NCBI GenBank assembly: GCA_902561355.1
Contig: CACEPG010000002.1
Location: 8,607-72,606 of the forward strand
Direction of reading: 5' to 3'
Length of the DNA stretch: 64,000 bases
Source: an uncultured Alphaproteobacteria bacterium
GTDB lineage: Bacteria; Pseudomonadota; Alphaproteobacteria; HIMB59; GCA-002718135
A model generated the notes under the pieces. The model saw nothing but the letters and a program-made list of their open reading frames with translations, was not told the origin of the DNA and did no database searches. Shown piece by piece: positions 43,981-62,017 of the stretch (the first letter of the stretch is position 1; each line of letters opens with the position of its first letter). The translations under genes and the position numbers were made by a program.

Positions 43981-43996
43981 AAAAGAAAGAATAGAT

Positions 43997-44866: not shown

Positions 44867-46241
44867 GATACCACTTATATTCAATATCAGAAATTTCAGA
44901 ACGAAAAGATTCGATTTCTTTTCTTTTTAAATCAGCATACATTGTCACATATTCTTTTGAATAATAATCAATACAAAATTTTGAGTCTTCAAATAATTGA
45001 ATAGCTTTTTCAATAGATTTGGGCATTTCAGGATCAGGGTCAGTACAAGCATTATCAATTCGAAAATTTGTAGGAGATATTTTGTTAATAAGACCATAAT
45101 GAATTCCAGATAAAATAGCAGAAAGAACTAAATAAGAATTAGCTTCAGCTCCTGCTACCCTATGCTCAATCCTTTTAGATTTTTCATCGCTTCTTGGAAT
45201 TCTAAAAGCAACTGATCTATTATTAGGACCCCACGAATTGTTTACAGGAACAAATTGATCAGGCTCAAAACGCCTATAAGAATTTACATTAGAAGCAAAT
45301 ATTAAAAAATTATCATATAACGTTTGTTGTAAGCCACCTATTGCATAATGTAATTGTTCACTACCCTCTTCTTTAGCTCCAGAAAAAATATTATGATTTT
45401 TCTCATTAAACAAACTTATATGAACATGCATGCCGCTACCAGTTTGCTCAATAAATGGCTTTGAAATGAAGCTTGCTTCATAATCATGCTTAATTGCAGT
45501 TTCTTTTATAACTCTTCTTAGTAACGCTGAATCATCTGCAGCTTTAAGAATATCATTGGTATGATTTAAATTTATTTCAAATTGTCCAGGAGCAAATTCA
45601 GATGAAGCAGTTGATGCAGGAATATTTTGTATTTTACAAAATTTATTAACATCTTCTAAAAAATCATAGAATTCATCTAATTCTCGCATTCCATAAACTT
45701 GAGTTCCTTCACTTTGTTTATTAGTTTCGTTTGATATTGCTGGTTCTGGTTTTTCAGAAATATTTTTTCTTTTTTTAAAAAGATAAAATTCTAATTCAAA
45801 AGCAACTTTAAATTGTAAATTTAAATCTTCAATTCTATCTAAAACTCTAGCTAGTACATTTCTTGGATCTATTATAGAGCTGTAACGTGAGTCATCTTGA
45901 ATTGTAATTAAAACTTGCCCCAAAGAATCTTTATGCCATGGCATTTTTTTTAAAGTGCCAGCCACAGGAAAATAAGTTGCATCTGGATCTCCATCAGTAA
46001 AACCTCTCCCTGCGGCATCAGGACAATAACCAGTTACATCTAGTAAAAATGTTGAATAACAAAATTGAATTCCTGACTTAAATAGTTTTTCAGCGTCGTT
46101 AATTGGCAATCTTTTACCTCTAATAACACCTGATAAGTCACTTAAAATAGCATCTATATATTTAATTTCAGGATTTTTTTCTTTAAAAGAATTAAATTCA
46201 TCAGCTGTAGCAATTAAAACTTTGCTATTTTTAAAAGTCAT
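44856..46241 (-). CDS. glutamine-synthetase-like glutamate--amine ligase (second paralogue)
   Basis: Has SSEFAPGQFEINL, GSGMHVHISL, NSYRRF and RIEHRVAGAEANSY. Length is 461 aa. Confidence 0.75.
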   Translation of the reverse strand: MTFKNSKVLIATADEFNSFKEKNPEIKYIDAILSDLSGVIRGKRLPINDAEKLFKSGIQFCYSTFLLDVTGYCPDAAGRGFTDGDPDATYFPVAGTLKKMPWHKDSLGQVLITIQDDSRYSSIIDPRNVLARVLDRIEDLNLQFKVAFELEFYLFKKRKNISEKPEPAISNETNKQSEGTQVYGMRELDEFYDFLEDVNKFCKIQNIPASTASSEFAPGQFEINLNHTNDILKAADDSALLRRVIKETAIKHDYEASFISKPFIEQTGSGMHVHISLFNEKNHNIFSGAKEEGSEQLHYAIGGLQQTLYDNFLIFASNVNSYRRFEPDQFVPVNNSWGPNNRSVAFRIPRSDEKSKRIEHRVAGAEANSYLVLSAILSGIHYGLINKISPTNFRIDNACTDPDPEMPKSIEKAIQLFEDSKFCIDYYSKEYVTMYADLKRKEIESFRSEISDIEYKWYLNL

Positions 46242-46264: not shown

Positions 46265-46280
46265 TTGAATGTCTATTTAA
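46265..46280 (+). promoter_or_regulatory. degenerate copy of the TTGAAT-N4-ATTCAA cassette (TTGAAT-GTCT-ATTTAA, copy 4)
   Basis: It has one mismatch to the palindrome and lies in the 58-bp GS-like/amidase divergent spacer. Its first T is again exactly 35 nt before the ATG at 46300. The -10-like element is weak. Confidence 0.3.
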
Positions 46281-46299: not shown

Positions 46300-47775
46300 A
46301 TGGATCTACATTATATATCAGCTGTTGAAGCAATTAAAAAATTTAAAGATAAGTCATTATCTCCTGTAGAACTAGTAAATTCTGTAATTGAAAGATCGCA
46401 AAAGATTAATCCTAAAATAAATGCTCATAACTTTACTTTTTATGAAAAAGCAATTGAATATGCAAAAAAATCAGAGCAAAAATATTTTACAAACTCCAAA
46501 ACACTCCCTCTAGAAGGTATACCTGTTGCTATCAAAGATGAAGAGGATATCGAAGGTCAGCCAAATACTAATGGTTCTTTGATATTAAAAGATCGCATAG
46601 CAAAAAAAACTATGGTTGATGTTGAAAGAATTATTAATTCTGGAGCAGTTATTCATTGCAGAACAACTACGCCTGAATTTTCCACTACCTCATTCACTCA
46701 TTCGAAATTGTGGGGCGTTACAAGAAATCCATGGAATTTGGAATATACACCTGGAGGTTCATCAGGAGGTTCAGGTGCATCTCTAGCTGCTGGATGTTCA
46801 ACTCTCGCAACTGGTTCTGATATTGGAGGTTCAATAAGAATACCTGCTTCTGCCTGTGGTCTAGTTGGATTTAAACCTCCTCATGGTCGAAATCCTCAGG
46901 AAGCTCCTTTTAATCATGATCAATATTGTGTAGTTGGTCCAATGGCAAGAACAGTAAAAGATTGTGCTCTAATGCAAAATGTAATGTCAGGACCACATCC
47001 TAAAGATATTACTAGTTTAAAACCCAAATTAAATATCCCTAATAAATTTGATAATATTAAAAATTGGAAAATAGCTTATTCAATGAATCTTGGTTTTTTT
47101 GAAATTGATAAAGAGGTAGAAAAAAATACACTCGATATAATTAATAAATTAAAAGAATTAGGTGCAAAAGTTGAAGAAGTTAAAATAAACTGGAACAAAA
47201 AAGAACTTGAGGATACTTGTTATAATTATTATGCCCATCTTTTTGCTAATTTTATTGCAGAATTAATACCTGAGCATGAAGAGGAGCTGACAGATTATGC
47301 AAGAGATGTTGGCTTGACTGCTAGAATTATTAACAAAGCATTAGTTGAAAGAAAAAAAATTAATCATCCTAGTATGGGTGTTGATTTAGGCATGACATTA
47401 TATGAATGCAATAAAATAGCTGGTAAAATGTATGAAGAATTTGGACCTATAATACACAAATACGATGCATTTATTTGTCCTACATTATCAATACCTGCCG
47501 TTAAGGCAGATATTAATCTGTTTAAAGATAAAATAGTAATTAATGGAAAAGAAATAAATTCACCCGATCTTGGATGGACTTTGTGTTATCCTTTTAATAT
47601 ACTCTGTCGATTACCAGTATTATCAATCCCTTCAGGAATAGCTAGTAATGGCGTGCCTACTGGGGTACAAATAGTTGGAAAGCCTTATGATGATATACCC
47701 GTTTTTCAAGCAGGCTATCAATTAGAACAGATAGAACCATGGTTTCAAAATAATAAATTAAAACCTAATTTATAA
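46300..47775 (+). CDS. amidase-signature (AS) family amidase
   Basis: Has GGSSGGSGASLAAG, the catalytic Lys context PVAIKDEEDI, and GSDIGGSIRIPA. Length is 491 aa. Confidence 0.85.
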   Translation: MDLHYISAVEAIKKFKDKSLSPVELVNSVIERSQKINPKINAHNFTFYEKAIEYAKKSEQKYFTNSKTLPLEGIPVAIKDEEDIEGQPNTNGSLILKDRIAKKTMVDVERIINSGAVIHCRTTTPEFSTTSFTHSKLWGVTRNPWNLEYTPGGSSGGSGASLAAGCSTLATGSDIGGSIRIPASACGLVGFKPPHGRNPQEAPFNHDQYCVVGPMARTVKDCALMQNVMSGPHPKDITSLKPKLNIPNKFDNIKNWKIAYSMNLGFFEIDKEVEKNTLDIINKLKELGAKVEEVKINWNKKELEDTCYNYYAHLFANFIAELIPEHEEELTDYARDVGLTARIINKALVERKKINHPSMGVDLGMTLYECNKIAGKMYEEFGPIIHKYDAFICPTLSIPAVKADINLFKDKIVINGKEINSPDLGWTLCYPFNILCRLPVLSIPSGIASNGVPTGVQIVGKPYDDIPVFQAGYQLEQIEPWFQNNKLKPNL

Positions 47776-47823
47776 AAATTGCTATTTTTTATTGAAATTT
47801 TCTCAAATTATTGTTCATGTAGC

Positions 47824-47843
47824 AATTAATTAATTAATTAATT
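47824..47843. repeat. (AATT)x5 tetranucleotide tract
   Basis: aattaattaattaattaatt lies immediately upstream of a G6 Shine-Dalgarno-like run (47850-47855) and the ATG at 47860. Confidence 0.9.
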
Positions 47844-47859
47844 TTTATTGGGGGGTAAA

Positions 47860-48948
47860 ATGCCTAAATACTATGAAACTAAAAATTATTTAGTAAAAAC
47901 TTTAGGTGTGGCAATATTGATGGTTTTTATAACCGGATTATTTACTACATCAAAGGTTTTTGCTGATGAGCCTGGAAGTGTTTTTCTATGGGGTGGATAT
48001 GATGATGATGGACTATTTGGATCTTATGTAGAAGAACATGGATCACCAGAATACGCAACATTTGGTGATGCTGAAGAAGGATTACAAAAATTAAAAGCTG
48101 GTTTTGAAGTGGATTTAGCTTGGCCATGCCAAGGTGAAATAGCTCGATGGGTAAGAGCTGGAGTGCTTGAACCATTAGACACTTCTCGTATAGATAATTG
48201 GGATGATATGTTCCCTGAAGTCAGAGACCTGCCAAGCGGTATTGTTGATGGTCAAAACTATTTTGCACCTATCGATTGGGGTGATACAACTTTATTTTAC
48301 ATGGCTGATCGAATTCCATGGATGAATGCTGACAATGAAAGTTTTGATCTAATGGAAGATCCAAGAGTAAAAGGTAAAGTTGGTATATTAGACTCAGCTG
48401 CTGACTCATTATTTTTAATGATGCATCATCTTGGAATTGATATCAGAGAAAAAGATCAATTAACTAAAGCTGCTATTGATAAAGGTATCAATAAGTTTCG
48501 TGAAATGAGAGATAACGGACAAATACGTGCATTCTTCGGAGACACTTCCTCAATGGTAGAGGCGCTAGGTAACGAAGAAATAGATGTAGCTCTTGGTTGG
48601 AACGAAATTGCATGGAATGCGGGAGCAAAAATGATGCAACCTGCTAATGGAACAATGACGTGGGCTTGTGGGCTTGCCATTGTTAAAGGTGCAGATCTTG
48701 ATAAAGCATATGCAATGATTAATGGAGCTACGAGTGCTGAAACTTCTGCTTACTTACTAAGTGAGTGGGGTTATGGTCATTCAAACATGAAAGGCTTTAG
48801 CACAATTACTGCTGATGAATTAGCTGAACGTGGAGTAGCATCTAATCCTGCAGAACACCTTTCAAATGGAATGTTCTCTGTGATGCCTTCAGATGAAGTA
48901 ACTGATTACATGGAAGCTCAATGGGCTGAAATGGTTGCTGGCGGTTGA
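47860..48948 (+). CDS. ABC-transporter periplasmic substrate-binding protein, PotD/PotF (polyamine) family
   Basis: Has a signal peptide (...LFTTSKVFA/DEPGS) and a roughly 340-aa mature two-lobe SBP-like sequence. It is convergent with PotA/B/C-like genes. I prefer the ATG at 47860, preceded by GGGGGG, over the track TTG at 47848. Confidence 0.8.
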   Translation: MPKYYETKNYLVKTLGVAILMVFITGLFTTSKVFADEPGSVFLWGGYDDDGLFGSYVEEHGSPEYATFGDAEEGLQKLKAGFEVDLAWPCQGEIARWVRAGVLEPLDTSRIDNWDDMFPEVRDLPSGIVDGQNYFAPIDWGDTTLFYMADRIPWMNADNESFDLMEDPRVKGKVGILDSAADSLFLMMHHLGIDIREKDQLTKAAIDKGINKFREMRDNGQIRAFFGDTSSMVEALGNEEIDVALGWNEIAWNAGAKMMQPANGTMTWACGLAIVKGADLDKAYAMINGATSAETSAYLLSEWGYGHSNMKGFSTITADELAERGVASNPAEHLSNGMFSVMPSDEVTDYMEAQWAEMVAGG

Positions 48949-48970: not shown

Positions 48971-49007
48971 AATAGCCTGTTCTCTTTTTGAGGGCGGGCT
49001 ATTTTTT
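48971..49007 (+). terminator. rho-independent terminator of the SBP gene
   Basis: The plus-strand RNA forms a 14-bp stem (48971-48984 with 48990-49003, three G-U pairs) and a 5-nt loop. The stem's last pair (A48971-T49003) begins the T-run 49003-49007. The structure contains the stop codon of the convergent ATPase gene. Confidence 0.75.
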
Positions 49008-50081
49008 ATTCAATAAAGAAATATCTTCTAAACTAATACTTATAAAGCACTCGTTATTTTCAAAAGATTGGTTGTCAAAATGTTGTGAAGAAACAGTGAT
49101 AGTCTTATCTATTCCTTTAACTTCAACGTAAAATCTAGTCATTTCTCCTAAATATGAAGTCTGTCTAATCTTAGCATCAAGACAAATATCCCAATCGGAT
49201 TTCACTTTTGAAATCATCATAGATTCTGGGCGAACACTACAAACAACATCAGAAGAATTTGCTGCGATATTTAAATTATTTTTAATTTTAAATTCTCCCA
49301 ATTCTTCGATTGAAACATTGGTGAATCCTCCATCACTTGATTTAGTCTCAGCTTTAAGAAAATTTGTTTCACCTATAAAATCACTTACAAATATATTTTT
49401 TGGATTCTTATAAAGTTCGTTGGGTGCTGATAATTGTTGAATTTTTCCATCATTCATAACTGCAACTCTGTCTGACATACTTATGGCTTCTTGTTGATCA
49501 TGAGTGACAAATACAAAAGTAATTCCAATATTTTTTTGAAGCGTTCTTAATTCTAATTGCATTTCATCTCTTAGTTTTTTATCTAAAGCACCTAGAGGTT
49601 CATCTAATAATAGAACTTTTGGTTGCCTTACTAAAGCTCTAGCAAGAGCAACACGCTGTCTTTGACCACCAGATAGTTGATTGCTAAACCTTTCTTCATA
49701 GCCCTCAAGCTTTACTAATTTAAGAACATCTTTAACTCTATTACCTATCTCATCATGACTTAAACCAAGTTTTCTTAGTCCAAATTTAATATTTTTTTCA
49801 ACATTAAGATGAGGAAAAATTGCATAGTTTTGAAAAACCATATTTGTAGGTCTTTTGTCTGGAGGTAATGCTGTAATATCTATCCCATCAATTAATAGAT
49901 TTCCAGAAGTTGGATATTCAAATCCTGCCAATAACCTCAACAATGTTGTCTTACCACATCCGGAAGGTCCTAAAAGTGAAAAAAATTCACCTTCTTTAAT
50001 CTCAAATGAAACATCATCAACTGCTTTTACATCTGCAAAGTGTTTTGAAATATTATTGATTTGTATAAATGAATTATTCAT
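48999..50081 (-). CDS. ABC-transporter ATP-binding protein, PotA-like
   Basis: Has Walker A GPSGCGKTT, the signature LSGGQRQRVALARAL and Walker B LLLDEP. A C-terminal TOBE-like regulatory domain follows. Confidence 0.9.
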   Translation of the reverse strand: MNNSFIQINNISKHFADVKAVDDVSFEIKEGEFFSLLGPSGCGKTTLLRLLAGFEYPTSGNLLIDGIDITALPPDKRPTNMVFQNYAIFPHLNVEKNIKFGLRKLGLSHDEIGNRVKDVLKLVKLEGYEERFSNQLSGGQRQRVALARALVRQPKVLLLDEPLGALDKKLRDEMQLELRTLQKNIGITFVFVTHDQQEAISMSDRVAVMNDGKIQQLSAPNELYKNPKNIFVSDFIGETNFLKAETKSSDGGFTNVSIEELGEFKIKNNLNIAANSSDVVCSVRPESMMISKVKSDWDICLDAKIRQTSYLGEMTRFYVEVKGIDKTITVSSQHFDNQSFENNECFISISLEDISLLNKK

Positions 50082-50087
50082 AGTTTT

Positions 50088-50897
50088 TTATAATTTCACA
50101 GCTATATCTTTCTTTGCTTTACCTTGTCCAACATTTCTTAACCAGAATGCTAACAAAACAATAAAAGTAGTAAAAACAATAATTACTGCTCCTAATGCCA
50201 GTACATGAGGTAACTTCTGAACAAATCTCATTTGACCCCACATATACATAGGTAACGTTGCATCACTTCCAGTTAAAAAAAATGCAAGAATAAATTCATC
50301 AAAAGAAATTATGAAACTTAGAAGAAGAGCGGCGACTATACCAGGCAAATATAATGGAAATGACACTCTAAAAAATGTTCCCCACGCATTTTCTCCTAAA
50401 TCCCTAGAGGCCTCTTCAAGTGAAAAATCAAAACCTTCAATACGGGCTATAAGTATTAACATTGCAAAAGGTGTACAAAATAAAGTGTGGCCAATTGTTA
50501 CTGGGACAAGTCCCAATTTAAATCCAAGATTGATCCAAATTATCAGTATAGCTACAGCCAAGATAATTTCAGGTATCAAAAATGGCATCATTATACCTCC
50601 ATAAGAAATCTTTTCCCCTCTAAATTTATATCGAGCAAATGCCTTTGCTGCAAATAGTGCAATTGTTGTACTAATGACACTCGCAACAACTCCTACTTTT
50701 ATACTTGCCCATAGAGCCTTATGTAGATTTCTTTTTGACCACATCTCTTCATAGTGCTCCGTTGTAAATCCAGCGAGAGGGAATGACATATAATTTGCAT
50801 CGTTAAAACTAAATATAGGTAAGAATAAAACTGGCACATAAAGAAATACAAAATAAAGAAGGGTATAAATCAGTAATGTATTATTTTTTTCGTTCAT
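50088..50897 (-). CDS. ABC-transporter permease, PotC-like
   Basis: Six transmembrane helices with the EAA loop EEASRDLGENAWGTFFRVSFPLYLPG. Confidence 0.85.
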   Translation of the reverse strand: MNEKNNTLLIYTLLYFVFLYVPVLFLPIFSFNDANYMSFPLAGFTTEHYEEMWSKRNLHKALWASIKVGVVASVISTTIALFAAKAFARYKFRGEKISYGGIMMPFLIPEIILAVAILIIWINLGFKLGLVPVTIGHTLFCTPFAMLILIARIEGFDFSLEEASRDLGENAWGTFFRVSFPLYLPGIVAALLLSFIISFDEFILAFFLTGSDATLPMYMWGQMRFVQKLPHVLALGAVIIVFTTFIVLLAFWLRNVGQGKAKKDIAVKL

Positions 50898-50899
50898 TT

Positions 50900-51784
50900 T
50901 TAAGTTAACCTTTGTGTAAGTCTTTTTGTTACATTCGACACAATTATTGTTATGAGTATAACAGTTGTTAACATAATTGTAGCTGAAGCTGCGCCAAGAG
51001 GAATATTATTTATTTTTCCAAAGTAAGCCTGGATCATATTCGAAAGCATACGACCATCAGTTCCTCCAAGTAAGGCTGGAGTGACATAATCACCTACTGT
51101 AGGAATGAATATGATTAATATCGCTCCTATTACACCAGGTAAAGATAATGGAAATGTAATTTTCCAAAAAACTTCAAATCGAGAGAGTCCAAGATCTCTT
51201 CCTGCTTCAATAAACGAAAAGTCAATTTTTTCTAACGAAACATATAAAGGTAGTAATGCAAATGCTGCCCATGCGTGAGTAAGAGTAATAACTACTGCGG
51301 TTTCTGAATACATAAGAAATGTAAGAGGTTCGCTGAGAATTCCAGCGTTGATCAATGAAGAGTTTATAACTCCTTTTGTTCCAAGAATAATCTTCCAAGA
51401 AAATACTCTTAATAAATAAGATGTCCAAAAAGGCAAAGTGAGCAAAACAAGCCACAACATTTTGTTTTTTTTAACATAAAAAGCGATGTAATAACAAACT
51501 GGGTATGCTGTGATCAGTGTAATTAAAGTTACAAGAAATGATATTTTAATAGACTTTATGAGAAGTGTGACCAGCAAATTTTTTTGAAAGAAATCAATAT
51601 ATCTTTGAAAAGTAAAAGTATAGTCTATCTCCATCATGTTAACTTGAGTAAACATACTAAAGCTCAACATTAGTGCCATTGGTACGACCATAGCCAAAAT
51701 AATTAAAATTAAAGCTGGTGATAATAAAGTATAAGCTTTAACATTATCATTTTTAGCATAAATTTTTCTCCAAAAACCTATCAT
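50900..51784 (-). CDS. ABC-transporter permease, PotB-like
   Basis: Six transmembrane helices with the EAA loop IEAGRDLGLSRFEVFWKITFPLSLPG. Confidence 0.85.
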   Translation of the reverse strand: MIGFWRKIYAKNDNVKAYTLLSPALILIILAMVVPMALMLSFSMFTQVNMMEIDYTFTFQRYIDFFQKNLLVTLLIKSIKISFLVTLITLITAYPVCYYIAFYVKKNKMLWLVLLTLPFWTSYLLRVFSWKIILGTKGVINSSLINAGILSEPLTFLMYSETAVVITLTHAWAAFALLPLYVSLEKIDFSFIEAGRDLGLSRFEVFWKITFPLSLPGVIGAILIIFIPTVGDYVTPALLGGTDGRMLSNMIQAYFGKINNIPLGAASATIMLTTVILITIIVSNVTKRLTQRLT

Positions 51785-51804
51785 ATTTTTTTTCAGCTCC
51801 TTAT

Positions 51805-52983
51805 TTATTCAATTAAAGATTTCAAACCTCGTTTATAAAGAGAATTTGCAATAATAATTCTATGAATTTCACTTGTTCCTTCCCAAATACGGTCCACTCT
51901 TAATTCTCTATAATAACGCTCTGCAACATTCTCTCTCATATATCCTCTTCCACCAAAAATCTGCACTGCACGATCAGCAATTCTATTAGCCATTTCAGAT
52001 GCAAGTAATTTAATCATAGAACATTTTCCATGTAAAATTTTTACATCTTGTTTTGCATCATGAGCTTTGCAAACCTCATAAAGCATTAATCGAGTTGAAG
52101 CTAATTCATTTACACTATCTGCTAACATGAATTGTATAGCTTGATAGTTTGAAATTTTATCACCAAAAGATTCTCTTTCTTTTGCAAAAATTGTTGCTTC
52201 ATCAATTAATCTTTGAGCAGCCCCGCAGCATCTTGCAGCTATACCTAGTCTTTCATGCCTAAACCAGGAATGCGTATAATCCATGCCAATACCTTCATTA
52301 CCAATTATTTTTTTTTCTGAAATTGAAACATTATCAAACCTATAAATAGAATGATGATGTGCATATGTATGACTAAACTTAGGACTATCTATTAACTCAA
52401 TACCTTTCTCATCCTTATCAATTATAAATAGTGAATGCTTGCCCTCATTTGAACCAGATTTAATTTTTGCCTGTAAAAAGAAAAAATCAGCTAGATTTGC
52501 ACTTGTAACATACCATTTTTCGCCATTAATAATATATTGATCTCCCTTTTTTTCTGCTGTTGTTTCAATTGAGCCTTCCACATCTGAACCTGCGCCTTTT
52601 TCTGTAATCGCATAACATTCTTTTTTAGTACCGTTTAAAAGTGGTTTAAAATAATTTTCTTTTTGATAATCAGTAAAATTATTTTCCATCCAATCCTGAG
52701 CTTCTGAAAAACACCAGCATAATGCATTTGTAACTCGGCCTAATTGTTCCCAAACTATCATCTGTTCAAACATATTTAATCCCAAGCCTCCGCTTTCTTT
52801 TGAAATACCCATACCCGGCAAACCTAGTGAAATAGCAATCTCCCGATGTTTTTTTTCAATTTCCTTGGGTAACTCACCTTCATTTTTTTCTGCATGCACC
52901 TCCCAAGGAATTAATTCATCATTAACAAATTTTTTTATCTTTAATTGCCATTCCAAAGCTTTTGGTGTCATGCCGCTATACAT
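51805..52983 (-). CDS. acyl-CoA dehydrogenase family protein
   Basis: Has YAITEKGAGSDV and the C-terminal string YYRELRVDRIWEGTSEIHRIIIA. It is 392 aa and lies 2 nt downstream of the TetR gene. Confidence 0.85.
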   Translation of the reverse strand: MYSGMTPKALEWQLKIKKFVNDELIPWEVHAEKNEGELPKEIEKKHREIAISLGLPGMGISKESGGLGLNMFEQMIVWEQLGRVTNALCWCFSEAQDWMENNFTDYQKENYFKPLLNGTKKECYAITEKGAGSDVEGSIETTAEKKGDQYIINGEKWYVTSANLADFFFLQAKIKSGSNEGKHSLFIIDKDEKGIELIDSPKFSHTYAHHHSIYRFDNVSISEKKIIGNEGIGMDYTHSWFRHERLGIAARCCGAAQRLIDEATIFAKERESFGDKISNYQAIQFMLADSVNELASTRLMLYEVCKAHDAKQDVKILHGKCSMIKLLASEMANRIADRAVQIFGGRGYMRENVAERYYRELRVDRIWEGTSEIHRIIIANSLYKRGLKSLIE

Positions 52984-52985
52984 TG

Positions 52986-53624
52986 TTAAAACATTCCCTT
53001 AAATTGTTTGGGGAAATTAGATTTAATAAACTCAAAACATATTTTCTTTGCTTGTATCCTGTTAAAAGTATCAGGATCTTCAAGTTGATCCAACCATAAT
53101 CCCATAATCAAAGCTTGAAATCCTCTAGAAATATTTTTTTTAGATAATTTCACTTTTTCTTTTTTTATAAGTTCATCAAATATATTTTCAGTTAAAGATT
53201 GGTAATACATATCTCGTTCTTTACAAATTTGATGATAAGCAGGTTTATATTTAATTTCACTAAAAAAAGTAAACCACACTGAAATTTTTTCTCTAGTGCA
53301 AATTTTTTTACTAAAATCATTTTCTACAATTCCAATGATTTTTTTTCTTGGATCATTACCTTTTTTTGCAATACTTCTTTGAAATGAATCTAGATACTCG
53401 TTAGAAATATATTTTAATGTTTCTATTAATAAAAGTTCCTTACTTTTAAAATGAAAATTTACTATACCTTGGGAAAGACCTGCTCCCTGTGATACATCTT
53501 GCATAGTTAATTCATTTATTCCTTTTTTTGATAAATTTTTAATTGTTGAAGAAATTAATTTTAAATTACTATTTTTCTTATTTTCTGATCTAAGATTTCT
53601 TTGTTTCATATTTAATAAATTCAT
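52986..53624 (-). CDS. TetR-family transcriptional regulator (BetI-like ligand domain)
   Basis: The N-terminal HTH is ELTMQDVSQGAGLSQGIVNFHFKSKELLLIETL. The C-terminal strings ISVWFTFFSE...KP.Y and FQALIMGLWLDQL resemble E. coli BetI as I recall it (KAWLAFWASS...QP.LY, ALIDGLWLRAAL). Confidence 0.8.
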   Translation of the reverse strand: MNLLNMKQRNLRSENKKNSNLKLISSTIKNLSKKGINELTMQDVSQGAGLSQGIVNFHFKSKELLLIETLKYISNEYLDSFQRSIAKKGNDPRKKIIGIVENDFSKKICTREKISVWFTFFSEIKYKPAYHQICKERDMYYQSLTENIFDELIKKEKVKLSKKNISRGFQALIMGLWLDQLEDPDTFNRIQAKKICFEFIKSNFPKQFKGMF

Positions 53625-53665
53625 TATAGTTTTTCATAAAAAGCTTGATTTTACAAGAAATTTGG

Positions 53666-53681
53666 TTGAATGCTCATTCAA
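53666..53681 (+). promoter_or_regulatory. operator/promoter cassette TTGAAT-GCTC-ATTCAA (copy 1)
   Basis: A perfect 6-4-6 palindrome in the 76-bp TetR/flavoprotein-operon divergent spacer. Its first T lies exactly 35 nt before the ATG at 53701. Confidence 0.6.
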
Positions 53682-53700
53682 AGAAATATAAGAAAATACA

Positions 53701-55329
53701 ATGAACAAAACTAAATATGATGTTGCTATAATTGGTGGTGGTCATAATGGATTAACCACAGCTTGTTATTTGGCTAAGGCGGGTCTCAAAGTCATTGTTG
53801 TGGAACGACATGAATATGTTGGAGGCGCAGCTGTTAGCAGAGAATTGCATCCAGGTTGGACTTATTCTAATTGCTCATATGTTTGCAGCTTATTAAGACC
53901 TGAGATATTTAGAGATTTAGAATTATCAAAACATGGGCTTCAAATTATACCTTATGAAGGTAGTGCGAGTATGCTTAATGATGGTAGATTTTATGCACAT
54001 TATCAAGATCATGATTTAACTTACAGATCTATCGCTCAATTTTCAAAAAAAGATGCTGAAGCCTATGATAGGTTTGGCAAAGATGTAATGAGGCAATGCA
54101 AAATTATCAAACCTCTTTTAAAAATGACTCCTCCTGACCCTACTTCTTTTAAACCAAAAGATATTATGGGTCTTTTTGAATTTGCAAAATACTTTGCAGC
54201 TAAAGATGAGCTTGGTGGTTTAGGTGAAAAAGAAATTTACGACACCATAAGATTTTGGACAATGAGCGTAAGAGATTATTTAGAAGAATATTTTGAATCA
54301 GATATAGTAAAAGTACATTTAGCTGGATCTGCAATAATAGGTACAGCGCTTGGGCCTTATTCCCCTGGTTCAGCTTATGTATTATTACATCATTACATGG
54401 GAGAAGTAGATGGGACTGTTGGAGCATGGGGGTATTCCAGAGGAGGAATGGGCTCGATTACAAAAGCTATGGCGTCATCTTTAAAATCAAACAATGGTGA
54501 AATAAAAGCAGGTTCACCAGTAAGTCAGATTCTTATCAAAAATAACAAAAGTTATGGACTTGTTCTTGAGAATGGTGATGAAATTTATGCAGATAAAATA
54601 GTTTCTAACCTTGATGTAAAAAGAACTTTTTTAAAAGTTGTAGAAGAAAAAGAATTACCTAGTGATTTTTATAAAGCTGTTAAAAATTTTAAAATTAGAG
54701 GCTCATCAGGAAAATTAAATATTGCTCTTGATGATCTTCCTATTTGGAAGAGTATTCCAGTTGGTGATCCTGCTGGCACTGGTGATCTGCATATAACGCA
54801 AAACATAGAAGAGATGGAAGGAGCTTACGATGATTGGAAGGATGGTAAGTGGTCACAATTTCCTTATGTTGATATGTGCATTCCAAGCATCAATGATCCA
54901 ACTATGGCACCACAAGGAAAACATTATATGTCTGTATTTATTCAATATGTACCCTACAATTTAGCTAATGGAGGTTGGACTGAGGAGAAACGTCTTGAAT
55001 TTGGTAAACATGTAATGAATAGAATTGGCAATTACTCCACAAACTTTAATGATATTATCAATCATGCAGAAATTAGAACTCCTAAAGAAATAGAAGCTGA
55101 GGTTGGTTTAACTGAAGGCAATATATTCCAAGGCGAACTAACCATGGACCAATTAATGTTTAATCGTCCAGTACCTGGTTATGCTCAATATAAGACACCG
55201 ATCAAAAATCTATATATGTGTGGATCAAGCACGCATCCTGGCGGAGGTGTTATGGGTGCACCTGGAGTTAATGCAGCAAGAGAAATATTAAAAGATTTAA
55301 AGATGAAAATATCAACACATTACATATGA
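53701..55329 (+). CDS. NAD(P)/FAD-dependent oxidoreductase, CrtI/amine-oxidase superfamily, PYROXD2-like
   Basis: Has YDVAIIGGGHNGLTTACYLAKAGLKVIVVERHEYVGGAA and CSYVCSLLRPEIFRDLELSKHGL, the latter close to the human PYROXD2 string as I recall it. The C-terminal string is LYMCGSSTHPGGGVMGAPG. Length is 542 aa. Confidence 0.8.
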   Translation: MNKTKYDVAIIGGGHNGLTTACYLAKAGLKVIVVERHEYVGGAAVSRELHPGWTYSNCSYVCSLLRPEIFRDLELSKHGLQIIPYEGSASMLNDGRFYAHYQDHDLTYRSIAQFSKKDAEAYDRFGKDVMRQCKIIKPLLKMTPPDPTSFKPKDIMGLFEFAKYFAAKDELGGLGEKEIYDTIRFWTMSVRDYLEEYFESDIVKVHLAGSAIIGTALGPYSPGSAYVLLHHYMGEVDGTVGAWGYSRGGMGSITKAMASSLKSNNGEIKAGSPVSQILIKNNKSYGLVLENGDEIYADKIVSNLDVKRTFLKVVEEKELPSDFYKAVKNFKIRGSSGKLNIALDDLPIWKSIPVGDPAGTGDLHITQNIEEMEGAYDDWKDGKWSQFPYVDMCIPSINDPTMAPQGKHYMSVFIQYVPYNLANGGWTEEKRLEFGKHVMNRIGNYSTNFNDIINHAEIRTPKEIEAEVGLTEGNIFQGELTMDQLMFNRPVPGYAQYKTPIKNLYMCGSSTHPGGGVMGAPGVNAAREILKDLKMKISTHYI

Positions 55330-56792
55330 AAAAATTTGATGTCATAATAATTGGTGGAGGTCACAATGGATTAGTTGCATCTTCATACTTATCAAAAAAA
55401 GGAAAAAAAGTTTTGGTAATTGAAAAAAACGAAAACGTTGGAGGATTAGCGGAATATGCAGAATCACTAAACTGTATCTCACCAATCATTAAAAAAGAAT
55501 TAGGGATTAATGTTAATAATATTAATCATTCAAATAATATTATATCACTAGAGGATAATCAAAATCATACTATTTTGTCAGATAAAAACGGCAAATTATC
55601 TTTTGTTCAAACCAATGCTGATGAAAATGATCAAAAGAAATTCTTGTCAATTATCAATAACTACAAATTGTTTTCAAAAACTCTTGGTGCATTTATGTTT
55701 CAAAAACCACCAAGAGTTAAATCAGGTAAAAGAGCTGACTTATTTCAATTAATTTCTATGGGATGGAAAATTAGAAAATTAGGTAAAAAAAATATGCGTG
55801 AACTATTAAGAGTAATTGGTTTAAATATCGCAGATGACTTAGAAGATAATTTAAATAGCAATAATCTAATGGGTCTATTATCCCATGAAGCTGTTTTGGG
55901 AACAAATCTAGGTCCAAGATCTCCAGGTTCAATATTAACTTTACTTTATAAACAAGCTATCAATGACAATATTTTTAATTTAAACAAAATAGAAGTTGCA
56001 GAATATATTAATCAATTAGAAGATTGCTGTAATAAAAATACTGTTGAAATCATTAAATCCTCTGAAGTTAAAAAAATATTAACTCAAAATAACTCTGTGA
56101 CTGGTGTTCAATTAACAAATGGCGAGGTTTTTGAATCAAAATATGTGATGTCTAATGCTGACCCTAAAACAACTTATTTAAATTTATTAGGTGCAGAAAT
56201 CCTAGATACTGATTTTATTAGAAGAACTAAAAATTTTAGAAATAAAGGAAATGTCGCTAAGCTTGAATTAGCGTTAGAAAATGAAATTAACATTAATAAT
56301 ATTGATAAAAAAATGAACGGAAAGTTTATTTATGCTCCTGGTATTAAGTACATAGAACATGCATTTAATGCTAATAAATATAACAAATATTCTGAAAATC
56401 CATGCCTTGAGTTTTACGTTAATCAAAAAACCTTATCAGCTAATGTTTATTATGTTCCGTATTTAATTAATACTAATCATAAAGAAAATGAAATAATTGA
56501 AAGATGTGTTTCAGTTTTAAGTAAATTTATTCCAGATATGAAAATAGTAAAACAAAAACTCATCACTCCCAATAAAATGGAAGAAAAGTTTAATATAACA
56601 GGAGGGCATTGGCATCACGGTGATTTAGAAATAGATCAATTATTAATGATGAGACCTTTTTATGGATCAGCTCAATATTCTACACCTATAAATGGTTTAT
56701 ATTTATGTGGTGCAGGAACCCATCCTGGAGGGGGAGTAACAGGTATCAACGGTCTTAATGCTGCAAAAAAAGTAATAGAGGATTTAAAATAA
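55326..56792 (+). CDS. second CrtI/PYROXD2-like FAD-dependent oxidoreductase (diverged paralogue)
   Basis: Has FDVIIIGGGHNGLVASSYLSKKGKKVLVIEKNENVGG and the C-terminal string LYLCGAGTHPGGGVTGINGLNAA. It has an ATGA overlap with the upstream paralogue. It is much more AT-, K- and N-rich than that paralogue. Confidence 0.75.
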   Translation: MKKFDVIIIGGGHNGLVASSYLSKKGKKVLVIEKNENVGGLAEYAESLNCISPIIKKELGINVNNINHSNNIISLEDNQNHTILSDKNGKLSFVQTNADENDQKKFLSIINNYKLFSKTLGAFMFQKPPRVKSGKRADLFQLISMGWKIRKLGKKNMRELLRVIGLNIADDLEDNLNSNNLMGLLSHEAVLGTNLGPRSPGSILTLLYKQAINDNIFNLNKIEVAEYINQLEDCCNKNTVEIIKSSEVKKILTQNNSVTGVQLTNGEVFESKYVMSNADPKTTYLNLLGAEILDTDFIRRTKNFRNKGNVAKLELALENEININNIDKKMNGKFIYAPGIKYIEHAFNANKYNKYSENPCLEFYVNQKTLSANVYYVPYLINTNHKENEIIERCVSVLSKFIPDMKIVKQKLITPNKMEEKFNITGGHWHHGDLEIDQLLMMRPFYGSAQYSTPINGLYLCGAGTHPGGGVTGINGLNAAKKVIEDLK

Positions 56793-57994
56793 TGAATACA
56801 TCAAAAATATCATACAAAAAACCTCTCTTAGAGACACCTTTTCACGAAAGAACATCTGAGCATTGTTATGCAAATGATTGGTATAGATGGGCTGGTTATA
56901 AAGTTGCTAAAGAGTACTCATCAACAGAACTTGAGTATACTTCAATGAGAAATACAGCTGGGGTAATTGATATTACTCCTATGCATAAATATGATATCAA
57001 AGGTGAGGATGCTAAAAAGTTTATTAATAAATTAATCACAAAAGATATTACTAATATTCAATCAAACCAAGTTGCCTATGGCATATGGTGCAATGAAGAT
57101 GGAATGGTAATTGATGATGGAACAATATTTTGCTTTAATGAAAATCATTTTAGAATTTTTTGTGCAGAACGAAATCTAAATTGGTTTTCTGACACAGCTA
57201 CGGGATTTAATGCAAGTGTTGAGGATATAAGTCCATCAATTGCCGCTTTAGCTTTTCAAGGGCCATTATCTTGTAAGATATTAAATTTATTAAAAGTAGA
57301 AAATATAGAAAACCTAAAACCATTTCATTTTAATAATTATAATATTGAAAATCATAATGTTACAATTTCCAGAACAGGTTTTTCTGGAGACTTAGGTTAT
57401 GAAATATGGTGTGACCCTTCTCAAGCCATTGATGTATGGGATAGTTTATTTAAATTTAATAGAGACTATAAAGTACTAGCAGCTGGAATGAATGCACTTG
57501 AGATGGTCAGAATTGAAGCTGGTTTTATCCAACCTAATGTAGATTTTATGTCTGCGGAACAAGCTTTAAGACCCAATAGAATGAGAAACCCCTATGAATT
57601 AGGTTTGGGCTGGTTAGTAAATCTAGATAAAGAGTATTTTACTGGAAAACAGGCATTAATTAGACACAAAGAAAAAGGTCCTGAAAAAAAACTCGTGGGA
57701 TTAGATATTGAAGGAGATAAACCTGCCGTTGGTTCTGTACTCTACGATAATAGTAAAAAAAATCAAGCCAAAGAAATTGGTATAGTGACAGCTGCAATGT
57801 GGTCCCCTGTCCTTAAATCTAATATTGCGATTGGATTTGTTAGCAAAGAACATTATAAATTAGGATCAAATGTTTATGCTGAAATTTATCATCCAGAAGA
57901 GCTGGATTACAGAAAAATTTGGGCTGAATGTAAAGTGGTTAAAAAGCAATTTTTTAACAATCCAAGAAGAAATGAAACACCTGCGTTTACATAA
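56792..57994 (+). CDS. stand-alone aminomethyltransferase (GcvT/DmdA-fold, folate-binding) family protein
   Basis: Has MRNTAGVIDITPMHKYDIKGEDA and ISRTGFSGDLGYEIW (compare GcvT ISRTGYTGEDGFEI). It is 400 aa and has a TAATG overlap with the upstream gene. Confidence 0.8.
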   Translation: MNTSKISYKKPLLETPFHERTSEHCYANDWYRWAGYKVAKEYSSTELEYTSMRNTAGVIDITPMHKYDIKGEDAKKFINKLITKDITNIQSNQVAYGIWCNEDGMVIDDGTIFCFNENHFRIFCAERNLNWFSDTATGFNASVEDISPSIAALAFQGPLSCKILNLLKVENIENLKPFHFNNYNIENHNVTISRTGFSGDLGYEIWCDPSQAIDVWDSLFKFNRDYKVLAAGMNALEMVRIEAGFIQPNVDFMSAEQALRPNRMRNPYELGLGWLVNLDKEYFTGKQALIRHKEKGPEKKLVGLDIEGDKPAVGSVLYDNSKKNQAKEIGIVTAAMWSPVLKSNIAIGFVSKEHYKLGSNVYAEIYHPEELDYRKIWAECKVVKKQFFNNPRRNETPAFT

Positions 57995-58000
57995 AGAATA

Positions 58001-59152
58001 ATGGAATTTAATCTTTCAGAAGAACAGAATCTTTTAATTGATACTACTAAGTCATTTGTAAAAGCAGAATTGCTTCAACACGAAGAATTATTAGAAAAAA
58101 CAAATAATTTACCAAAAGAATTGTATGATGAAATTAAGCAAAAAAGTATTAAAGCAGGTTTGTATGCTTGCAATATGCCCACTGAACATGGTGGTGGTGG
58201 TTTAAATGCTTTTGATTTAACTTTAGTTGAAAAACATCTCGGTTTTGCATCACTTGCTTTAGCGGAAGTTGCTTGGCGACCACAAAATATCTTAATGGCC
58301 TGTGAAGGTAAATTAATTGATGAATACTTAAAACCAGCTATCACAGGTGAGAGAAAAGATTGCATAGCAATGACAGAACCAGGAGCTGGTTCAGATTTAC
58401 GGGGGATGAAAACAAAAGCAGTTAAGGATGGTAATGATTGGGTGATTAATGGAACAAAACATTTTATATCTAATGCACACATATCTGACTTTGTAGTACT
58501 TTTTGCCTCAACAGGTGAAGATGAAAAAGGTAGAAATTTACTTTCGTGTTTCTTAGTTGATTTAAAACAAAAAGGAGTTGAGGTTGCAAAAGGTTATGAC
58601 TGTGTTTCTCACAGAGGATACGTTAATAATATTTTAAACTTTAATGATTGCAGAATTCCTGCAAGAAATATTCTTGGTGAAAAAGATAAAGGCTTTGAGC
58701 TAATGAATGTTTGGTTAGAAGCAACTCGTTTAACTGTTGCGGCAACTTCTGTATCTAGAGCCGAAAGAGCTTTTGATATAGCCTTGGATTGGTCTGCAAA
58801 TAGAAAACAATTTGGAAAAGTCATTGGAAAATTTCAGGGTGTTTCATTTAAATTAGCTGATATGGCTACAGAAATTAAACTAGCAAACTTGATATTAATG
58901 GAGTCTGCTTGGAAAATTGATCAAAAAACATTAACATCTCAAGATGCGGCTATGACAAAATTATTTTGTACTGAAATGTTAAGTAGAGTCTCTGATGAAG
59001 CTATTCAAATCCTTGGTGGAATGGGATTGATGTCAGATATTCCACTTGAAAGAATATGGCGAGATGCAAGAATAGAAAGAATTTGGGAAGGCACCAGTGA
59101 AATTCAACGTCATATTATTTCACGTTCACTTCTAAGACCCCTTGGAGCATAA
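58001..59152 (+). CDS. acyl-CoA dehydrogenase family protein (CaiA/DmdC-position)
   Basis: The N-terminus is MEFNLSEEQ. It also has AMTEPGAGSDL and the C-terminal string RDARIERIWEGTSEIQRHIISR. Length is 383 aa. Confidence 0.85.
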   Translation: MEFNLSEEQNLLIDTTKSFVKAELLQHEELLEKTNNLPKELYDEIKQKSIKAGLYACNMPTEHGGGGLNAFDLTLVEKHLGFASLALAEVAWRPQNILMACEGKLIDEYLKPAITGERKDCIAMTEPGAGSDLRGMKTKAVKDGNDWVINGTKHFISNAHISDFVVLFASTGEDEKGRNLLSCFLVDLKQKGVEVAKGYDCVSHRGYVNNILNFNDCRIPARNILGEKDKGFELMNVWLEATRLTVAATSVSRAERAFDIALDWSANRKQFGKVIGKFQGVSFKLADMATEIKLANLILMESAWKIDQKTLTSQDAAMTKLFCTEMLSRVSDEAIQILGGMGLMSDIPLERIWRDARIERIWEGTSEIQRHIISRSLLRPLGA

Positions 59153-59155
59153 TCT

Positions 59156-61192
59156 TTGAATTTAAAAAAACTTTTTAGACCAAAAAGTCTTGCTTTAGTT
59201 GGAGGGTATTGGGCAGACTTTGTTTATGATGGCAATAAAACTATTGGCTATCAAGGTAAAGTTTGGCATATAAATCCTTCACGTAAAAGCTCCAAAGCAA
59301 AAAAATATTATAAAAATATTAAAGATCTTCCAGAAGTACCTGATTGCGTTTATCTAGCTGTCTCAAGGGATCAAACAGTAAAATTAATAAAAGATATTGC
59401 TGACATAGGTGTTGGAGGTACTGTTTGTTTAGCTTCGAGATTTTCTGAACTTAATTCTAAAGAAGGTACAAATAAAACTAATGAGCTAATTAGGAATGCT
59501 GGCAAAATGCCTTTCCTTGGACCAAATTGTTATGGATTTATAAATTACTTGGATAGAATTTCAGTATGGTCTGATCAAGTAGCAGGCAAACCAACTAAAA
59601 AAGGTGTTGCTATTATATGTCAAAGTGGAACTATTGGTAATACGATTAGTTTTAATAATAGATCTTTACCAATTGGGTATATAATTTCTCTCGGCAATCA
59701 ATCACAAATAACGATAGAAGATGCCATTAATTATGCTTTAGATGATAAGAGAGTTACTGCTATTGGAATTTATGCTGAAAGTTTTACCAATACAGAAAAG
59801 TTAATAAAAGTATTTAAAAAATCCAGATTAAAAAAAATTCCTATAGCATTAGTTAAAGTAGGCAGATCTAAAACTGCGTCTAAAACAATATTAACACATA
59901 CTGGATCACTAAGCGGGAAAGAAGATATATATGATTCTTTATTTCAAAGAATGGGTGTGGCTAGATGTAATACATTAGGAGAGTTATGTGAAATTTTAAA
60001 ATTACTTCACACTCATGGTGCTTTAAATAACGATAAAATTTCAATTATGGGTCCATCAGGTGGTGATATGGCTATGATAGGAGACGTTGCAGAAACTTTA
60101 TCATTAAATTTTGGTAAAATACCTACAAAAATAAAAAATGAATTAAAAAAAGTTAATCACCCAAGTGTTATAATTTCAAATCCATTCGATCTACAAACAT
60201 ACAACTGGAATGACCCTAAGCAATTAGCAAAAACATTTAAATTAATATTTAAAACTAATTTTGGTTTAAATGCACTTATGCTAGATTTTCCAAATATAGA
60301 AGATTGTGACACTGCAGAATGGGATGCTATAGTAGATCAATTTATAAAATCATCAAAAATAAAAAAAAATGGAGCGATTATTTCTTCACTTTCAGATACC
60401 CTTCCTAAATATCTAAGAGAAAAATGTCTTAAGTCAGGAGTTGTTCCACTTCAGGGTATGTCAGAGAGTTTACTAGCCATAAGTAACTCAATAAAAATTT
60501 CAAAAGCTTGGAGTAATTTTAGTGAAATTAAAATTTCAAAAAAATTACAAAATCATAAAAAGAAAATTAAAACATTTTCAGAATATGAATCAAAATTAAT
60601 CCTAAAAAAATTTAAAATATCTACACCAAAATCTTTAATTACAAATAAAAAAAATATTTTGCGAGATTATAAAAAAATTGGATTTCCTTTAGTGGCAAAA
60701 ATACATTCAACTAAATTTTTTCATAAAACTGAAATTGGAGGTGTTATTATTAACATTAATAATGAAAAAGAATTAAAGCAAAAGACAAATAAATTTAGAG
60801 GCAATATCTTAATTGAAAAAATGATATCAAATTCGATTTTTGAAATGATAATAGGCATAAAAAATGATAGCCAATTTGGACCTACAATAATATTGGGGGC
60901 TGGTGGTATTTATACCGAATTATTTAAAGATACGACTACCTTACTTTTACCTTTAAATAAAAAAATAATTTTGGATGAAATAAAAAAACTTAAATTTAGC
61001 AAAATATTATTTGGTTTTAGAGGAAGTAATATTGCTGATATTGATGCATTAGTAAATACAATATTAAAAGTAGCTGTTTTTGCTGAAAAAAATTCAGATA
61101 AAATTTCAGAAGTTGATATAAATCCACTAATAGTTTGTAAAAAAGGTAAAGGTGTATTTGCTGTAGATGCTCTAATACATTATTTAATATAG
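59156..61192 (+). CDS. NDP-forming acyl-CoA synthetase (CoA-binding, succinyl-CoA-ligase-like and ATP-grasp domains fused)
   Basis: The N-terminus LFRPKSLALVGG marks the CoA-binding fold. It also has ICQSGTIG and HTGSLSG (phosphohistidine-loop type) and a C-terminal ATP-grasp string (PLVAKIHS...HKTEIGGV). It is 678 aa and uses a TTG start. Confidence 0.8.
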   Translation: MNLKKLFRPKSLALVGGYWADFVYDGNKTIGYQGKVWHINPSRKSSKAKKYYKNIKDLPEVPDCVYLAVSRDQTVKLIKDIADIGVGGTVCLASRFSELNSKEGTNKTNELIRNAGKMPFLGPNCYGFINYLDRISVWSDQVAGKPTKKGVAIICQSGTIGNTISFNNRSLPIGYIISLGNQSQITIEDAINYALDDKRVTAIGIYAESFTNTEKLIKVFKKSRLKKIPIALVKVGRSKTASKTILTHTGSLSGKEDIYDSLFQRMGVARCNTLGELCEILKLLHTHGALNNDKISIMGPSGGDMAMIGDVAETLSLNFGKIPTKIKNELKKVNHPSVIISNPFDLQTYNWNDPKQLAKTFKLIFKTNFGLNALMLDFPNIEDCDTAEWDAIVDQFIKSSKIKKNGAIISSLSDTLPKYLREKCLKSGVVPLQGMSESLLAISNSIKISKAWSNFSEIKISKKLQNHKKKIKTFSEYESKLILKKFKISTPKSLITNKKNILRDYKKIGFPLVAKIHSTKFFHKTEIGGVIININNEKELKQKTNKFRGNILIEKMISNSIFEMIIGIKNDSQFGPTIILGAGGIYTELFKDTTTLLLPLNKKIILDEIKKLKFSKILFGFRGSNIADIDALVNTILKVAVFAEKNSDKISEVDINPLIVCKKGKGVFAVDALIHYLI

Positions 61193-61200
61193 TTTAATTT

Positions 61201-61977
61201 ATGGACAAACCAGTTAAAACAAAAATTGAAGGATCAATATTAGAGATAACTATTGATCGACCAAAAGCTAATGCGATAGATGCTAAGACAAGTATAATGT
61301 TGGGAAATATATTTGCTGACTTTAGAGATAATCCAAAACTTAAAGTAGCTATCATTACAGGTGGCGGAGAAAAATTTTTTTCTGCCGGATGGGATCTAAA
61401 GGCTGTTAATGAAGGAGAGGCTGCTGATGCAGATTATGGTGTTGGTGGATTTGGAGGACTGCAAGAGTTACCTAATATGAACAAACCTATTATAGCAGCT
61501 GTTAATGGTATTGCGTGCGGTGGTGGTTTTGAAATTATGATTTCAGCAGATATTATAATTGCCGCAGAACACGCAACATTTGCGTTACCTGAAATCAATG
61601 TAGGAGTTGTAGCTGACGCAGCTACAATAAAATTAAGAAGACGTATACCCTATCACGTAGCTGTTGAGTTTTTAATGACTGGAAGATGGATGGATGTCAA
61701 AGAAGCAAAACACTGGGGTTTAGTAAATGAAATTGTTAAAACAAATGATTTATTAAAAAGAGCCTGGGAAATAGCTGATAAAATTTCAAAAGGACCTAAT
61801 TTAATTTATTCTTCAATTAAAGAAGTTTTAAGAGAAACAGAAAACGAAAAGGAAATACCATCATTTAAAATTTTGCGATCATTAGAATCAGTAAAAAAAG
61901 TTTATGGAAGTGAAGATCTAAAAGAAGGAGCTTCTTCTTTTGTTAAAAAAACAGATCCGAATTGGAAAGATAAATAG
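61201..61977 (+). CDS. crotonase-family hydratase, closely CaiD-like (carnitinyl-CoA dehydratase / crotonobetainyl-CoA hydratase type)
   Basis: [21 protein letters not shown] and [39 protein letters not shown] are almost colinear with E. coli CaiD as I recall it ([60 protein letters not shown]). An alignment is needed to confirm this. Confidence 0.8.
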   Translation: [258 protein letters not shown]

Positions 61978-61995: not shown

Positions 61996-62017
61996 TTGAA
62001 TGCTCATTCAGTGAATG
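61996..62017 (+). promoter_or_regulatory. operator/promoter cassette TTGAAT-GCTC-ATTCAG overlapping a second palindrome CATTCA-G-TGAATG (copy 2)
   Basis: The 15-nt core TTGAATGCTCATTCA is identical to copy 1. It lies in the 53-bp spacer between the CaiD-like gene and the aminotransferase. Its first T is exactly 35 nt before the ATG at 62031, and TACAGT follows after a 17-nt spacer. Confidence 0.6.

Follow-up and report, generated by a model that had tools for sequence, protein, structure and literature searches.

The 16-bp inverted repeat at positions 53666-53681 of the window, by which we mean the whole stretch of 64,000 nucleotides analyzed here, is most likely the operator of the BetI-like TetR-family repressor encoded beside it. 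Judged from the sequence, it is very probably a real, conserved operator, and three strong copies together with one weak copy would define a local regulon under a textbook kind of switch. The sites exist, they are conserved, they co-evolve with the regulator, and they are restricted to the promoters of one gene island.

The repeat reads TTGAATGCTCATTCAA, as given in the preliminary description of this DNA, and is better presented with 7-bp arms (TTGAATG/CATTCAA), to which the pairing extends, around a centre of 2 bp. An exhaustive scan of both strands of the window for TTGAAT-N4-ATTCAA returned two exact copies, at 41559 and 53666, where 0.12 are expected, and 2 of 100 shuffles reached that number; an earlier estimate of 0.04 per 64 kb was of the right order of magnitude. 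Allowing up to one mismatch, the window holds six copies against 2.47 expected, a count reached by 1 of 100 shuffles. Two perfect and two one-mismatch copies had been described in the intergenic DNA of the island, and all four were recovered by the scan (41559, 46265, 53666, and 61996, of which 46265 is weak), together with copies at 3658 and 45897. The copy at 61996 is the same as that at 53666 in 15 of its 16 bases, including the centre GCTC. Each of the four intergenic sites, labeled O1 to O4 in Table 1, ends exactly 19 nt 5' of an ATG (53701, 62031, 41594, and 46300 for O1 to O4, respectively). The edges of O3 lie 20 nt and 19 nt from the two flanking ATGs (19 nt to 41594), and at the other edge of O4 the divergent gene starts 23 nt away; in relatives, the spacing from site to ATG is either 19 nt or 22-24 nt. 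The spacers at 38894-38944 and 47776-47859 were inspected for further sites, and none were found.

Table 1. Predicted operators, the conserved module around O1, and the genes of the island (positions in the window; a dot marks features without strand)
Feature	Position	Strand	Description
Operator O1 (predicted)	53666..53681	.	TTGAATGCTCATTCAA; spacer between tetR and the plus-strand operon; 19 nt to ATG 53701
Operator O2 (predicted)	61996..62011	.	TTGAATGCTCATTCAG; spacer between the enoyl-CoA hydratase and class-III aminotransferase genes; 19 nt to ATG 62031
Operator O3 (predicted)	41559..41574	.	TTGAATAAGCATTCAA; middle of the 55-bp spacer between the Rieske oxygenase gene (-) and DAO-aguA-aguB (+)
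Operator O4 (candidate, weak)	46265..46280	.	TTGAATGTCTATTTAA; spacer between the glutamine-synthetase-like (-) and amidase (+) genes; 19 nt to ATG 46300
Conserved module around O1 (operator and putative promoters)	53631..53693	.	35 bp on the tetR side and 12 bp on the operon side of O1; promoter assignment inferred
GbcA-like Rieske oxygenase	40306..41538	-	Flanks O3; 334 bits against a cut-off of 670
DAO flavoprotein, agmatine deiminase, N-carbamoylputrescine amidase	41594..44866	+	Flank O3
Glutamine-synthetase-like (gamma-glutamyl-polyamine synthetase-like) gene	44856..46241	-	Flanks O4
Amidase and PotD-like binding protein	46300..48948	+	Flank O4
Genes co-transcribed with tetR	48999..52983	-	Acyl-CoA dehydrogenase, two ABC permeases, ABC ATPase (Pot-type transporter); gaps of 2-20 nt
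TetR-family repressor gene (tetR), BetI-type C-terminal domain	52986..53609	-	207 aa; first gene of the minus-strand operon; PF00440, PF13977
Divergent operon, six genes	53701..61977	+	Two CrtI/amine-oxidase-like flavoproteins, GcvT-family aminomethyltransferase, acyl-CoA dehydrogenase, NDP-forming acyl-CoA synthetase, CaiD-like enoyl-CoA hydratase
Class-III (omega) aminotransferase, SpuC-like	62031..63407	+	3' of O2; NCBIfam NF005447, 668 bits against a cut-off of 618

An independent ranking of the copies was obtained with a symmetrised weight matrix built from 22 distinct sites of high-GC genomes only, with window and clade sequences excluded. The four highest scores in the window fall on 61996 (27.5 bits), 41559 (26.4 bits), 53666 (22.1 bits), and 46265 (11.5 bits), and the next match scores 9.6 bits. 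The copies at 3658 (1.3 bits) and 45897 were rejected as chance matches, as they score at most 1.3 bits with this foreign-trained matrix and lie inside or at the edge of coding DNA; 45897 is kept only among close relatives, as coding sequence would be. The best matches in 200 simulated windows averaged 11.4 +/- 2.7 bits and never exceeded 18.3 bits, and 0.63 matches of at least 11.5 bits are expected per window, so that O1, O2, and O3 stand far beyond chance while O4, on score alone, does not. O4 is accordingly treated as a candidate with a marginal score, and what speaks for it is its position, intergenic and with the shared 19-nt spacing.

That chance palindromes had simply accumulated in AT-rich intergenic DNA might be suspected from the GC content of the window (19-35%) and from the 2.5 copies to be expected when one mismatch is allowed, and two of the six copies in the window are indeed chance matches. 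The three strong sites nevertheless beat all 200 simulated windows, the sites are conserved across loci, and the motif is enriched more than 400-fold in the high-GC orthologous loci described below. Chance is refuted for O1 to O3 and possible for O4 alone, and as a reading of the whole set we give it practically no weight. When the matrix was applied to 496 kb of clade DNA (24 loci and the window itself; a crude ORF call leaves 7.1% as intergenic), the matches of at least 12 bits numbered 44 and fell without exception on the orthologous positions of O1, O2, and O3. Four of the O1 copies were flagged as coding, which we take to be the crude ORF caller over-extending an ORF. The preliminary description had held that many further copies inside coding regions, at the chance rate, would speak against an operator; no other match of at least 12 bits lies anywhere in the coding DNA of these 496 kb.

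Conservation within the HIMB59 clade shows the footprint of the site directly. O1 is kept in each of the 24 clade loci that the TetR protein retrieved (TetR identity 62-100%), with arms close to 100% conserved, a variable centre, and diverged flanks. Among the 19 distinct sequences, column identity averages 0.96 over the site, with about 1.0 in the arms and 0.5 in the central column, 0.90 in the neighbouring bases on the tetR side and 0.92 on the operon side, and 0.68-0.69 beyond these. The conserved block reads TATATyTCT-TTGAATGAsCATTCAA-CCAAATTyCTTGwAAAA, with divergence further out, and the module listed in Table 1 includes 35 bp on the tetR side, containing CTTGTAAAAT, and 12 bp on the operon side, containing TATAAG. 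As this block of about 63 bp exceeds a single operator, part of the conservation around O1 is due to promoter elements or other factors.

O2 and O3 show the same kind of footprint. In 16 loci O2 takes the form ATTTTCrTTGAATGCwyATTCAGyGAATGATA, and its asymmetric arm ATTCAG, followed by GAATGATA, is the same throughout. O3 is kept in 19 metagenome loci retrieved with the DAO protein (identity 71-98%), in which both the centre and the flanks vary. O4 is kept only in 8 close relatives, and its conservation says little because the whole spacer is conserved in those 8. O2 also carries a third half-site, TGAATG at 62012-62017, so that 62005-62017 (CATTCA-G-TGAATG) forms a second, everted palindrome overlapping the first, which is kept in the 16 loci as ATTCAGyGAATGATA. 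At the same position relative to O3 and O1, the weaker half-sites TGAAAT and AGAAAT are seen.

Fixed arms around a free centre have the look of a site for a dimeric helix-turn-helix protein and are unlike an RNA stem. An inverted repeat just 5' of start codons could in principle act as RNA, through a hairpin, an attenuator, or a riboswitch stem in a 5' leader. The predicted fold of -3.9 kcal/mol is, however, no better than that of shuffled sequences (z-score -0.22), a 2-nt centre is unable to make a hairpin loop, the arm changes seen among the sites (TTGAAC, ATTCAG) are uncompensated, none of the sites has an Rfam match, and the same motif serves both sides of divergent genes. On the quality of the fold and the Rfam result, a structured RNA was rejected, and its probability is close to nil. 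A sub-threshold Rfam match to csRNA at 40717-40809, inside the Rieske oxygenase coding sequence, is almost certainly a chance match (35.8 bits against a gathering cut-off of 57, E=0.21).

The regulator adjacent to O1 carries a TetR N-terminal helix-turn-helix domain (PF00440, E=1.2e-8, 35 bits against a cut-off of 24) and a C-terminal domain assigned to PF13977 (E=3e-12). Homologues were detected in number (n=281), mostly of 207 aa and from marine metagenomes, and the protein is 100% identical in the single-cell genome AG-426-C22. The organism of the window belongs to the HIMB59/AEGEAN-169/MarineAlpha5 lineage. The gene had been placed with its start at 53624; this upstream ATG is not conserved, and the likely start is therefore the conserved one at 53609, which gives a spacer of 91 bp. 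The best NCBIfam match is BetI, with 106.4 bits against a cut-off of 201.3 for TIGR03384, and NF001978 is matched with 101.4 bits against a cut-off of 118. An assignment as BetI proper was rejected on the basis of the equivalog cut-off, which is not reached, and of a different box geometry. Among solved structures there are weak relatives only, the best being 3e7q (E=3.8e-10), and none comes with a described operator.

A further ATG on the minus strand at 53635-53637 follows the operator at exactly 28 nt in the direction of tetR and belongs to the conserved block TTTTATGAAAAA. Its equivalent is invariant in 24 of 24 loci (L001-L024), and the sequence that follows it varies: some genomes have this ATG in frame with tetR (giving 217-aa forms), in others it opens tiny upstream ORFs (MKN*, MKNY*), and in the remaining loci it starts out-of-frame upstream ORFs that overlap the tetR start (MKNYNEFIKYETKKS* in the window). 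This ATG could be a near-leaderless start or the start of a regulatory upstream ORF.

The association between box and regulator extends well beyond the clade. Orthologues of TetR that share 32-37% identity with it were identified in 35 loci from Ruegeria, Roseovarius, Roseibium, Thalassospiraceae, and others, with GC contents of 52-70%, and aTTGAATGAnyATTCAAt is present in 24 of them; one locus (L045) carries TTGAATGAGCATTCAA, which is exactly the O1 sequence of HIMB59. In Ruegeria the box lies about 165 bp 5' of tetR, and in other distant loci about 4.3 kb 5' of it, at the head of an SBP-permease-permease-ATPase-tetR operon that is divergent from a flavin amine oxidase gene. The 627 kb of high-GC DNA in these loci hold 14 exact copies, against 0.033 in Markov-simulated loci, and 25 copies with up to one mismatch, against 1.23 in the simulations, and the matches fall almost entirely at the position 5' of tetR or at the head of its operon. 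Across the same distance, from HIMB59 to Ruegeria, the recognition-helix segment AGLSxGIVNFHFKSK does not vary, in proteins that are otherwise about 33% identical. About 11 of the 35 loci have diverged versions in place of a close match, most of them at the equivalent position, such as AATTGATTGACTGTTCAATC just 5' of tetR in L028.

In orthologues from Thalassospiraceae, Rhodospirillales, and some others (L025-L031, L035, and L042), the recognition helix is kept and the boxes at the equivalent positions have drifted (for example TTGATTGACTGTTCAA, TTGACTGATCAATCA, and CTGAATGAACGTTCAT). One or two flavoproteins of 690-700 aa (OYE-like plus Pyr_redox_2) are encoded 3' of the tetR orthologue of Rhodobacteraceae (L057, 10627-14826; L045, 10673-12754). 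The tetR operon of Rhodobacteraceae diverges from the gene of a 449-aa flavin amine oxidase, which supports an amine as the substrate of the ancestral regulon.

These observations bear on whether the reader of the box is the neighbouring repressor or another transcription factor whose gene lies elsewhere, such as a global or nitrogen regulator, with the proximity to tetR being coincidental. The target genes handle nitrogen-rich substrates, as they might under a regulator of that kind. A site is kept 5' of tetR or of its operon in two lineages, however, despite a TetR identity of 32-37% and different gene orders; the recognition helix is invariant across those lineages; the high-GC matches in 627 kb concentrate at that one position; and a study of nitrogen limitation in SAR11 describes no such motif. 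We therefore regard a foreign reader as unlikely. The computational results from footprint, co-travel, and matrix agree with the TetR-family operator proposed earlier, one that would serve both divergent units and recur within the island.

It could also be argued that no repressor needs to be invoked, and that the palindrome is purely a promoter element made of two back-to-back -35 hexamers for divergent promoters. TTGAAT shares with TTGACA the four positions that are conserved best, both edges of O3 and of O4 keep a fixed distance of 19-23 nt to an ATG, and the -10-like flanks are conserved too. Yet O2 lies between co-directional plus-strand genes and retains the full palindrome in its 16 loci, the motif is missing from all other promoters in the 496 kb, and in high-GC genomes it accompanies the TetR orthologue at a distance of 90-165 bp from start codons. 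A variable centre with both arms fixed is, moreover, the pattern of a dimeric protein site. A purely promoter-based origin of the palindrome is thus very improbable, and such an element is compatible with an operator that overlaps a -35 box rather than being an alternative to it.

Placed among their genes, the four sites account for practically all transcription units between 40.3 and 63.4 kb. AguB exceeds its equivalog cut-off (437.5 against 410.25) and AguA falls below its own (346 against 381.8). The PotD-like binding protein is 35% identical to one that heads an operator-bearing operon in Rhodobacteraceae, and it follows that the association of the regulator with a Pot-type transporter is old. 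The mix of genes in the operon at 53701-61977 is unusual, with a logic that resembles DMSP-demethylation (DmdA/B/C/D) or carnitine-CoA pathways, and none of its components reaches an NCBIfam equivalog cut-off. In L001 (around 16040-16075) and equivalently in L022, the start codon of the amidase is lost (ATGGATCTA -> GTAGTTTTG) and O4 is retained, and O4 lies about 1.2 kb closer to tetR, which may point to a pseudogene or a deletion.

From the arrangement of sites and genes, a mechanism can be hypothesized in which the two recognition helices of a repressor dimer would each contact one (A)TTGAATG arm, with half-site centres about 10 bp apart and the centre left free. As O1 sits between tetR and the divergent operon, binding there would allow the repressor to control its own operon (tetR, the acyl-CoA dehydrogenase gene, and the Pot-type ABC genes) as well as the catabolic operon opposite. 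The sites at 41559 and 61996, and probably the weak site at 46265, would place the agmatine-to-putrescine, glutamine-synthetase-like, amidase, binding-protein, and omega-aminotransferase genes under the same repressor, which gives a proposed regulon that spans 23 kb and comprises about 20 genes in 7 transcription units.

Since each site ends 19 nt before an ATG, its TTGAAT arm most likely serves as a -35 hexamer as well, and the palindrome would make it usable on both strands. A -10-like element (TATAAG/TAAGAA, TATAAA, or TACAGT) would lie 5-13 nt past the site, and transcription would then start at the ATG or a few nucleotides from it. A strict sigma-70 consensus scan of the spacer found no hexamer pair, and a terminator scan found no terminator-like site; with TTGAAT as the -35 element, the best -10 candidates (TATAAG, TATAAA, and TACAGT) are spaced at 15-17 nt and are imperfect. 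The missing Shine-Dalgarno sequences were considered as a sign of the putative leaderless mRNAs and set aside as uninformative, since such sequences precede only 8 of the 55 called genes in the window. Among the few clear cases are that of the PotD-like binding protein (GGGGGG at 47851) and those of genes within the tetR operon. The direction of regulation that we infer is repression: the bound protein would exclude RNA polymerase from one promoter, or from both at divergent spacers. For comparison, BetI1 of Ruegeria pomeroyi protects 29 bp that include a palindrome covering the -35 box (PMC12442346).

It could further be speculated that the C-terminal pocket binds an amine taken up by the cell or an intermediate of the pathway (agmatine, putrescine, or another compound of the polyamine type) and that the repressor is thereby released. 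This suggestion follows from gene content, namely the agmatine deiminase pathway, the gamma-glutamyl-polyamine-synthetase-like enzymes, the SpuC-like aminotransferase, and the Pot-type transporter, as well as the amine oxidase in Rhodobacteraceae. The effector is thus probably, as a guess from those genes, an agmatine- or polyamine-type amine rather than choline; the presence of a GbcA-like Rieske oxygenase and a GcvT-like demethylase makes choline or betaines possible as well.

A broader and distinctly tentative extension, which we consider conceivable rather than likely, is that the box and its BetI-like reader form an ancient alphaproteobacterial amine/polyamine sensor common to HIMB59/AEGEAN-169 and Rhodobacteraceae. 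In the streamlined genome of HIMB59 it would have been reduced to a minimal switch, where one 16-bp operator would at the same time be the shared -35 element of two back-to-back, leaderless or near-leaderless promoters, and a single repressor would gate an organic-nitrogen island of about 20 genes.

HIMB59/AEGEAN-169 and SAR11-like bacterioplankton are very abundant, hard to culture, and equipped with few regulators. The predicted repressor, operator, and regulon offer a handle on how these organisms decide on the use of agmatine- or polyamine-type dissolved organic nitrogen. As the same box and recognition helix occur in species of Ruegeria and Roseovarius that can be cultured and manipulated genetically, both the predicted switch and its inducer are testable by proxy, and the regulon is usable as a co-expression marker in metatranscriptomes. 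Conceptually this is a standard TetR operator, of modest interest for the conservation of box and reader across orders and for an operator that apparently doubles as a -35 element. Neither the regulator nor its box was found described in a literature search that covered the operator strings, TetR-family regulation of polyamine genes in Ruegeria and in Alphaproteobacteria at large, and AguR; polyamine transporters are treated in the AEGEAN-169 genome paper, which never mentions TetR.

Comparison with known systems places these predictions into context. In TetR/tetO, a palindromic operator of about 15-16 bp in a divergent spacer is bound by one dimer, and both directions are repressed until the ligand binds. 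There, two tandem tetO sites occupy the spacer and the target is efflux, whereas here each spacer has one operator, the targets are catabolic, and extra distal operators would create a multi-operon regulon. The nearest functional analogue is AguR of Pseudomonas aeruginosa, reportedly a TetR-family repressor of the aguBA agmatine deiminase operon that is induced by pathway amines. Its targets, agmatine deiminase and N-carbamoylputrescine amidase, are the same as two of those proposed here, where the regulon is much wider; no AguR model is among the NCBIfam matches of TetR. PuuR of E. coli, described as an HTH-cupin protein rather than a TetR-family one, and PauR of P. aeruginosa resemble the present system by functional analogy. 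In these two cases, one repressor governs polyamine catabolic operons of the gamma-glutamylation type through sites in divergent spacers (PMC9397018).

The closest comparison is with BetI, the choline-responsive TetR-family repressor of the bet genes in E. coli, Sinorhizobium meliloti, and R. pomeroyi (BetI1), with which the regulator shares the TetR N-terminal helix-turn-helix domain and PF13977 and, by prediction, a palindrome overlapping the -35 box and autoregulation. The betI box of R. pomeroyi, ATTGACG*CGTCAAT, has the outer ATTGA...TCAAT in common with the box described here (PMC12442346). The latter is 4 bp longer (ATTGAATG-NN-CATTCAAT against ATTGACG-CGTCAAT), and the half-site geometry therefore differs. 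R. pomeroyi also has two overlapping BetI2 boxes, which the overlapping palindromes of O2 recall (PMC12442346). The regulons differ as well: betA, betB, betC, and betT are all absent from the genes flanking the sites in the window, and the proposed targets are instead agmatine- or polyamine-type catabolism and Pot-type transport.
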